A DNA stretch of 64,000 nt from Escherichia coli (lineage in GTDB: Bacteria > Pseudomonadota > Gammaproteobacteria > Enterobacterales > Enterobacteriaceae), in the NCBI RefSeq assembly GCF_050920415.1, contig NZ_CP169309.1. The stretch is one strand, 5' to 3'. The position numbers and the translations under genes are program-made. Below are positions 21,141 through 21,224 of this stretch, in pieces (position 1 is the first letter of the stretch; every line of letters starts with the position of its first letter). The notes under the pieces were generated by a model. The model was not told where the DNA came from. It ran no database searches and saw only the letters and a list, made by a program, of their open reading frames with translations.

Positions 21141-21224
21141 TTACCCCCAGCGGCAAATCGAATACACCACCAGCGCCACCGCCATTGCAATTCCTACCGT
21201 TGTGAATGCTTCAGGCCAGGTCAT
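21141..21224 (-). CDS. Small hydrophobic peptide (27 aa) candidate
   Basis: ATG overlaps stop of the upstream 183-aa gene (ATGA); sequence MTWPEAFTTVGIAMAVALVVYSICRWG. Confidence 0.3.
   Translation of the reverse strand: MTWPEAFTTVGIAMAVALVVYSICRWG

Follow-up and report, generated by a model that had tools for sequence, protein, structure and literature searches.

A candidate gene for a 27-residue membrane peptide at the end of Ea-type early gene blocks in Escherichia coli phages

A small ORF in the nin position of a lambdoid prophage

The DNA analysed here, a stretch of 64,000 nucleotides called the window in what follows, is E. coli chromosome with pabC-yceG-tmk-holB at its right end, and a lambdoid prophage lies within it. 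Taken in minus-strand reading order, the prophage block opens with a cI-like repressor gene (itself on the plus strand) and YdaT; an O-like gene, then a P-like gene and then a DUF1627 gene follow; next come an Ead/Ea22-like gene (22226..22687), a zinc-ribbon/coiled-coil gene belonging to phrog_1621 (21868..22257) and a minus-strand gene of 183 aa (21221..21772). The last of these adjoins the subject of this report, a small ORF on the minus strand (21141..21224, stop included), and 3' of the small ORF lie, in the same order, an insert of 256 nt, hok/sok, Fic/Doc, DUF968, RusA and Q. As it falls between the P-like gene and Q, the small ORF occupies the ‘nin position’, a term that refers to location only. 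A sequence-only reading of this DNA had called the 183-aa gene a nin gene. The location agrees with that name and the homology does not: no match to a Nin family (NinB, NinG, etc.) was found, nor any Pfam or NCBIfam match, and among PHROGs the top match is phrog_660 (function unknown).

By both the ORF listing and direct reading, the small ORF runs from an ATG at 21224..21222 to a TAA at 21143..21141, and it is the only copy in the window. Its 27 codons encode MTWPEAFTTVGIAMAVALVVYSICRWG, which sequence, hydropathy and comparative data together predict to be a single-pass membrane peptide. The ORF and peptide described in the sequence-only reading, which named no strand, were recovered exactly, on the minus strand. 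The description of the product as hydrophobic and single-TM-like is also borne out: the top 19-residue Kyte-Doolittle window scores 2.11, a TM-like value, and aromatic residues stand near both ends. So is the overlap with the upstream gene: the 183-aa ORF ends in a TGA at 21223..21221, so that an ATGA (21221..21224, minus strand) is common to both genes, in the arrangement typical of translational coupling. A Shine-Dalgarno sequence, GGAGG (21235..21239, minus strand), lies 10 nt 5' of the ATG, within the last codons of the upstream gene. A consensus scan found no promoter-like site 5' of the ORF; RNA folding at its start region was no better than that of shuffled sequences (z=0.18); and Rfam gave no match over the ORF itself, its sok match lying 300 nt downstream. 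With 71 ORFs of 20 aa or more overlapping a 4.5-kb stretch around it, 27 codons alone are unremarkable, and the case for a gene rests on comparative evidence.

The downstream neighbour, frequent among relatives and not obligatory, is a hok/sok locus (20522..20884, minus strand), made up of a promoter-like site at 20882..20854, the Rfam sok match at 20672..20847 (120 bits), mok at 20522..20734 and hok at 20522..20677. An isrK-like Rfam match at the 3' end of the hok transcript (20433..20514, minus strand; 24.7 bits against a gathering score of 50, E=0.006) is most likely just the hok terminator hairpin. The locus belongs to a cluster of addiction-type modules in the nin-position region (18898..20884), which also includes a Fic/Doc gene (19630..20124, minus strand) with a 74-aa ORF before it and a plus-strand pair (18898..19579) that by eye is RelE/HigB-like with an HTH antitoxin.

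In this window the small ORF is separated from hok by the 256-nt insert (20885..21140, minus strand), which is unannotated, occurs in 24 of 5426 E. coli genomes, and has no Rfam, Pfam or PHROG match. The insert carries a hydrophobic mini-ORF with a GTG start (20979..20890, minus strand; MLVLKCALAIAAVMAIYCLVIVLMNHLSD) and a GGGAGG Shine-Dalgarno sequence. On the opposite strand is an intrinsic terminator (21110..21130 with its T-run, plus strand), which could end an antisense RNA; the layout resembles that of a type I toxin-antitoxin system.

Spread, module boundaries and the reading frame

Of 5426 complete E. coli genomes, 1633 (~30%) contain the 84-nt element, which was found at 3108 places in all, with up to seven copies per genome; 163 of the places are on plasmids, and copies occur in phage-plasmids as well. 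The expectation that annotation would miss an ORF of this kind is confirmed: it is absent from PGAP annotation and from the records of 933W, VT1-Sakai, VT2-Sakai and Av-05, and the frame is intact in loci where PGAP omits it. In GenBank the exact peptide is confined to a few submitter annotations, under the name ‘bacteriophage protein’ or ‘hypothetical protein’, and its string had no match in a full-text literature search or in the supplements of EHEC Ribo-seq papers and of an enterobacterial smORF survey. Species-representative bacterial genomes gave only chance-type pattern matches, and no enterobacterial representative had an exact match to the MTWPEAF pattern; the ORF therefore looks like an accessory phage gene.

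Some database entries at or near copies of the ORF describe something else. For Shigella phage POCJ13 (NC_025434, L145 1206..1334), RefSeq has an antisense ORF, PI30_gp73, across the small ORF instead; in vB_EcoS-689R5 (L131 1577..1687), a 1-nt deletion after ATGAC has shifted the frame of the copy, and the 36-aa CDS in the annotation is what this altered frame encodes. Peptide fragments at contig edges are misnamed ‘DUF551 domain-containing protein, partial’, which could mislead searches. A 90% protein cluster joining the peptide to 121-aa DUF551 proteins was dismissed as an artefact, as those proteins do not contain the peptide, and ‘GGES+peptide’ was found to be a partial gene call at contig ends, not a longer protein.

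The edges of similarity coincide with the edges of the ORF. In a blastn search with positions 21100..21300, the match to 933W, VT2-Sakai and dozens of Stx phages covers query positions 77-160, precisely from ATG to stop. The 933W copy encodes MTWPEAFANVGTVMAVVLVVYSICRWR; the gene upstream, L0139 (phrog_1621), is unrelated and likewise overlaps it by ATGA, and sokW/hokW lies directly 3' of the copy. An unannotated copy is present in Av-05 (KM190144), a virulent phage of the Vequintavirinae, at L146 2001..2081, where it and the 3' end of the EaA/phrog_660-like gene Av05_00123 overlap; its presence there indicates transfer of the module between temperate and lytic phages.

The C-termini encoded upstream fall into at least three unrelated classes, all of them ending in the overlap: a first class with ..AEDVLR (..RNGLISAEDVLR), a DUF551 class with ..PPQEVNQ (..MPLPEPPQEVNQ) and a coiled-coil class with ..IEQEVNR (..NDLKNIEQEVNR). 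The DUF551 and coiled-coil classes have their final ~15 nt in common, a segment that contains the Shine-Dalgarno sequence and reads CAGGAGGTGAATC(A/G)ATGA; the module thus starts at the Shine-Dalgarno sequence, and in these two classes it begins at CAGGAGGTGAATCA-ATG. EaA-like proteins and proteins with a dATP/dGTP pyrophosphohydrolase domain are encoded by further upstream genes. The idea that a programmed frameshift fuses the peptide to the upstream product was rejected, no slippery site being common to the three upstream classes.

The signals for translation stay in place as the partners change. Of 118 copies, 114 have a Shine-Dalgarno motif at -18..-4. Of 122, 109 are preceded by an ORF of 60 aa or more that terminates in the ATGA, and in 117 the overlapping TGA ranks first among upstream stops. 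We infer from the conserved Shine-Dalgarno sequence and the start/stop overlap that the ORF is translated. What had been claimed of its relation to the upstream gene was translational coupling: these counts uphold the arrangement, and coupling as such is predicted from it.

On the downstream side, hok follows the ORF in 65 of 108 copies (~60%) and is absent in 43 (~40%). The distance to its start is ~210 nt in 50 of the 108 and ~370-480 nt in another 15, a spacing that this window shares. In most relatives, 933W among them, the small-ORF stop lies ~10 nt from the -35 element of the hok promoter; since the 933W ORF stops before that -35, it is not part of the hok mRNA. The copies without hok lie before ParDE (ArgO145), before DUF4222-xis-int, in phage-plasmids and in Av-05.

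Upkeep of the reading frame was assessed in a sample of 130 matches to a degenerate DNA pattern for MTWPEAF, drawn from IMG/VR contigs and other retrieved loci. The pattern fixes the first seven codons of this viral sample; codons 8-27 are free of it and were used for entropy. Conservation of frame and overlap in related prophages was the check proposed in the sequence-only reading, and its outcome favours a gene: 124 of the 130 matches are 27-codon ORFs, and the ATGA overlap is widely kept. These 124 intact ORFs comprise 67 unique nucleotide sequences and 34 unique peptides. Entropy over codons 8-27 is 0.257, 0.176 and 0.566 at codon positions 1, 2 and 3. Allele events divide into 37 synonymous and 39 non-synonymous, against an expectation of 28% synonymous (p=1.4e-4), and no allele creates a stop, compared with 4.2% of possible changes that would (P=0.04). 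Pooled pN/pS is 0.30 in the small-ORF frame, compared with 0.90 and 1.73 in the two shifted frames; over 20 codons, 0.30 indicates only moderate constraint. A 69-aa ORF on the opposite strand (21060..21269, plus strand) was rejected as a candidate; relatives do not preserve it, and its first codon positions would coincide with the most variable sites.

Copies retrieved by blastn, which is free of the pattern, tell the same story at greater distance: those at 80-85% nucleotide identity keep 27 codons. Among them are a phage-plasmid copy (MTWPEAFATVGIVMAAALGLYSICRWW) and an O157:H7 copy in a leftward operon (MNWPEAFTAVGVAIAVAFILYSLFRWG), which has a TGATG overlap and lies 5' of DUF4222-xis-int. 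One copy has an in-frame 6-nt deletion, and a few (L131, L133, L136) are dead, through a 1-nt deletion frameshift or N-terminal truncation. Most E. coli copies are 95-99% identical to one another; recent spread, not long selection, therefore accounts for some of the conservation.

One way to account for such a pattern is to deny that there is a functional gene: the 84 nt would hitch-hike with neighbouring modules, or would act as a DNA or RNA element, for example as the upstream part of the hok promoter or as an insulator, and the open frame would be incidental. The placing of the stop so close to the hok -35 in most copies, with hok downstream in 60%, could be read in this way, as could the great similarity of most copies and the pseudogenisation of some. 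Yet 40% of copies have no hok (those before DUF4222-xis-int or ParDE, in phage-plasmids and in Av-05), the similarity begins at the Shine-Dalgarno sequence or ATG and ends at the stop, and RNA folding does not exceed that of shuffles. Moreover, substitutions are codon-phased in the small-ORF frame only, and the antisense ORF would have its most variable sites at the first codon position. An incidental frame is thus very improbable, and the comparative evidence makes it very probable that the small ORF is a real phage gene, conserved yet hardly ever annotated, whose product is a tiny single-pass membrane peptide.

A family of tiny membrane peptides and its known counterparts

A profile search with the 27 positions against 1.84 billion representatives returned 60 clusters at E<1e-3, many of whose members read M(T/S/N)WP(E/D)AF..(V/I)G...A, with lengths of 27-35 aa, divergent helices and basic C-termini. 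An MxWP(E/D)AF-TM family is defined here by M-x-W-P-E/D-A-F, a hydrophobic helix of ~15-20 residues and a basic/aromatic C-terminus within a total of 25-35 aa; the small-ORF peptide has each of these sequence features. Invariant residues in alignment A1 are M1, W3, P4, E5, A6, F7, G11, A15, Y21 and W26. As a control, the stretch after the MTWPEAF match was TM-like in 4 of 36 chance matches in species-representative bacterial genomes versus 4 of 6 non-core viral ones (Fisher p=0.008). In four variants (P0024, P0025, P0027 and P0028), in-frame hexanucleotide-repeat expansions, (AM/AV)n in the peptide, lie within the helix (e.g. GIAMAMAMAMAMAVALVV and GIAVAVAVAVALVV) and add 2-8 residues to the TM segment.

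Three distant members of the family lie in unrelated phage-like contigs, one of which carries DNA ligase and ThyX, and each has a 4-nt overlap with its neighbours. No conserved neighbour gene was found among the distant members. Nor was a conserved helical face or small-xxx-small surface detected in the peptide, the conservation moment being equal to that of shuffles (p=0.41), despite the near-invariance of G11 and A15. With neither a conserved face nor a common neighbour, nothing points to a specific target.

No Pfam, NCBIfam or PHROGs family covers the peptide. At E<=1, a Pfam scan gave only DUF883_C (14 bits against a cutoff of 27) and PTR2, both below cutoff, and no match to HOK_GEF (PF01848). 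The KdpF model TIGR02115 scored 14.7 bits against a cutoff of 26.85, with only residues 10-21 aligned. There is a weak match to phrog_4612, of unknown function (E=0.019, 16.3 bits; peptide residues 1-23 against profile positions 33-54 of 57), and ten distant family members gave no match to that profile. Solved structures yielded no sequence match to the peptide.

Enterobacteria have inner-membrane proteins of ~30 aa with a single helix, such as KdpF, AcrZ, MgrB, MgtR and CydX, which bind larger membrane proteins and are often missed by annotation; the class is reportedly the subject of a review. The peptide has in common with them its size class, its single hydrophobic helix and the annotation gap, a likeness of kind that carries no claim of membership. 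It differs in having no sequence relationship to them (KdpF lies below cutoff), in being phage-borne and placed in early lytic operons, and in its own MxWPEAF motif. A second point of reference is the Pf3 coat protein type of tail-less membrane protein, oriented N-out/C-in, with a short acidic N-terminal tail, one helix and a basic/aromatic C-terminal end. The acidic N-tail and the C-terminal end ..CRWG of the peptide are similar, and this analogy underlies the orientation predicted for it below; unlike Pf3 coat protein, the peptide is not a virion protein, is much shorter, and has no solved-structure match.

The third comparison is with Hok/Gef proteins, represented by the adjacent hok and by hokW of 933W, which are likewise small hydrophobic membrane peptides and inhabit the same prophage neighbourhood, often next door. 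By contrast with them, the peptide is half as long and has no mok-like leader ORF, Sok-type antisense RNA or fold-back mRNA; its ORF is in an operon with the upstream gene, from which its translation is predicted to follow, and 40% of copies have no hok. The likeness raises the question of whether the peptide too damages membranes, as a type I-toxin-like, holin-like or depolarising agent that would kill or arrest the host in the lytic cycle or through leaky expression. A short, hydrophobic, single-TM peptide with aromatic residues at both ends, adjoining a bona fide small membrane toxin in 60% of copies and varying in TM length by in-frame expansion, is what might be expected of such an agent. 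The control anatomy of a type I system is nevertheless missing, there being no separate promoter, no antisense RNA match and no start-region structure beyond that of shuffles; the Shine-Dalgarno sequence and the ATG are normally spaced, and the ORF stands in a coupling arrangement with an ordinary gene upstream; HOK_GEF is not matched; and up to seven copies are tolerated per genome. The sequence-only reading noted that small membrane peptides of prophages are often toxins or regulators; for this peptide either role is a supposition, and a toxic one is on balance unlikely.

The last comparison is with the genes of the Ea/exo-xis region (Ead/Ea22, EaA, DUF551). The peptide gene lies in the same blocks, in the same mosaic, tightly overlapping layout, and in leftward-operon copies it stands just before DUF4222-xis-int. 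Their products are soluble, have 60-300 aa and belong to Pfam and PHROG families, unlike the 27-aa predicted membrane peptide, which has none. Judged by its sequence, then, the putative product is an undescribed example of the small phage membrane proteins.

Possible roles in early infection

The reading preferred here, to which we give a probability of roughly three in four, is that the ORF is a genuine gene for a 27-residue inner-membrane peptide of a widespread, essentially unannotated phage family. It would be the last cistron of a mosaic block of Ea-type early genes and be co-transcribed with the rest of the block. The operon in question would be the rightward early one in this prophage, where the ORF lies between the P-like replication gene and Q; in other phages it would be the leftward one, 5' of xis-int. 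Its translation would start from its own Shine-Dalgarno sequence inside the end of the upstream gene, probably helped by termination-reinitiation at the ATGA, as the anatomy suggests. An N-out/C-in orientation is predicted because the N-terminal tail is acidic (E5) and the C-terminal end basic (R25). The weakest step, proposed tentatively, concerns the likeliest mode of action: the helix may bind or perturb an inner-membrane protein of host or phage in early lytic growth, by analogy with small bacterial membrane proteins, for which this is common.

A different perspective places the partner immediately upstream. Natural fusions are found in which an Ead/Ea22-like protein continues in frame into the peptide as its C-terminal tail (..PPLESNK-MSWPDAFAIAGVAMSIALIVFAICRWG): P0042 (L141 2501..2932) on at least six contigs, and P0047 (L140 156..776). 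Both lie in leftward operons just 5' of DUF4222-xis-int and keep the internal Shine-Dalgarno sequence and ATG. Such fusions leave room for a role of the peptide as tether or partner of the upstream protein. On this view, the variable Ea-type protein made from the gene upstream would have in the peptide a partner, or a C-terminal membrane anchor that can be detached; the peptide would recruit that protein to the membrane or form a complex with it. The gene always comes last after Ea-type genes (phrog_660, phrog_1621, DUF551, Ead/Ea22, EaA), which favours the idea, as do the natural fusions. The upstream partners, however, are mutually unrelated, and distant family members have yet other neighbours; the fusions are few, retain the means of separate initiation, and could be tolerated accidents in decaying prophages. 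A role as anchor or partner is distinctly improbable.

The preferred reading, a gene for an inner-membrane peptide translated in its own right, has a more ambitious extension. The peptide may found a broad, undescribed family of phage mini-membrane proteins, spanning temperate lambdoid phages, phage-plasmids and virulent phages, with a specific and conserved function in early infection: either the binding of a host inner-membrane machine, or service as a portable tether for variable Ea-type early proteins, at which the Ead/Ea22-peptide fusions hint. We regard this extended reading as rather unlikely.

If the ORF is translated, RefSeq annotation, Pfam, NCBIfam and PHROGs all lack a gene that ~30% of complete E. 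coli genomes carry; an EHEC strain could have up to seven copies of it, and the reference Stx phages 933W, VT1-Sakai and VT2-Sakai would carry it too. The case also illustrates that a very short ORF can be validated by mosaic boundaries together with codon-phased variation. For the phages themselves, the peptide gene would open a testable way into the membrane role of the poorly understood accessory blocks of the Ea/exo-xis type.
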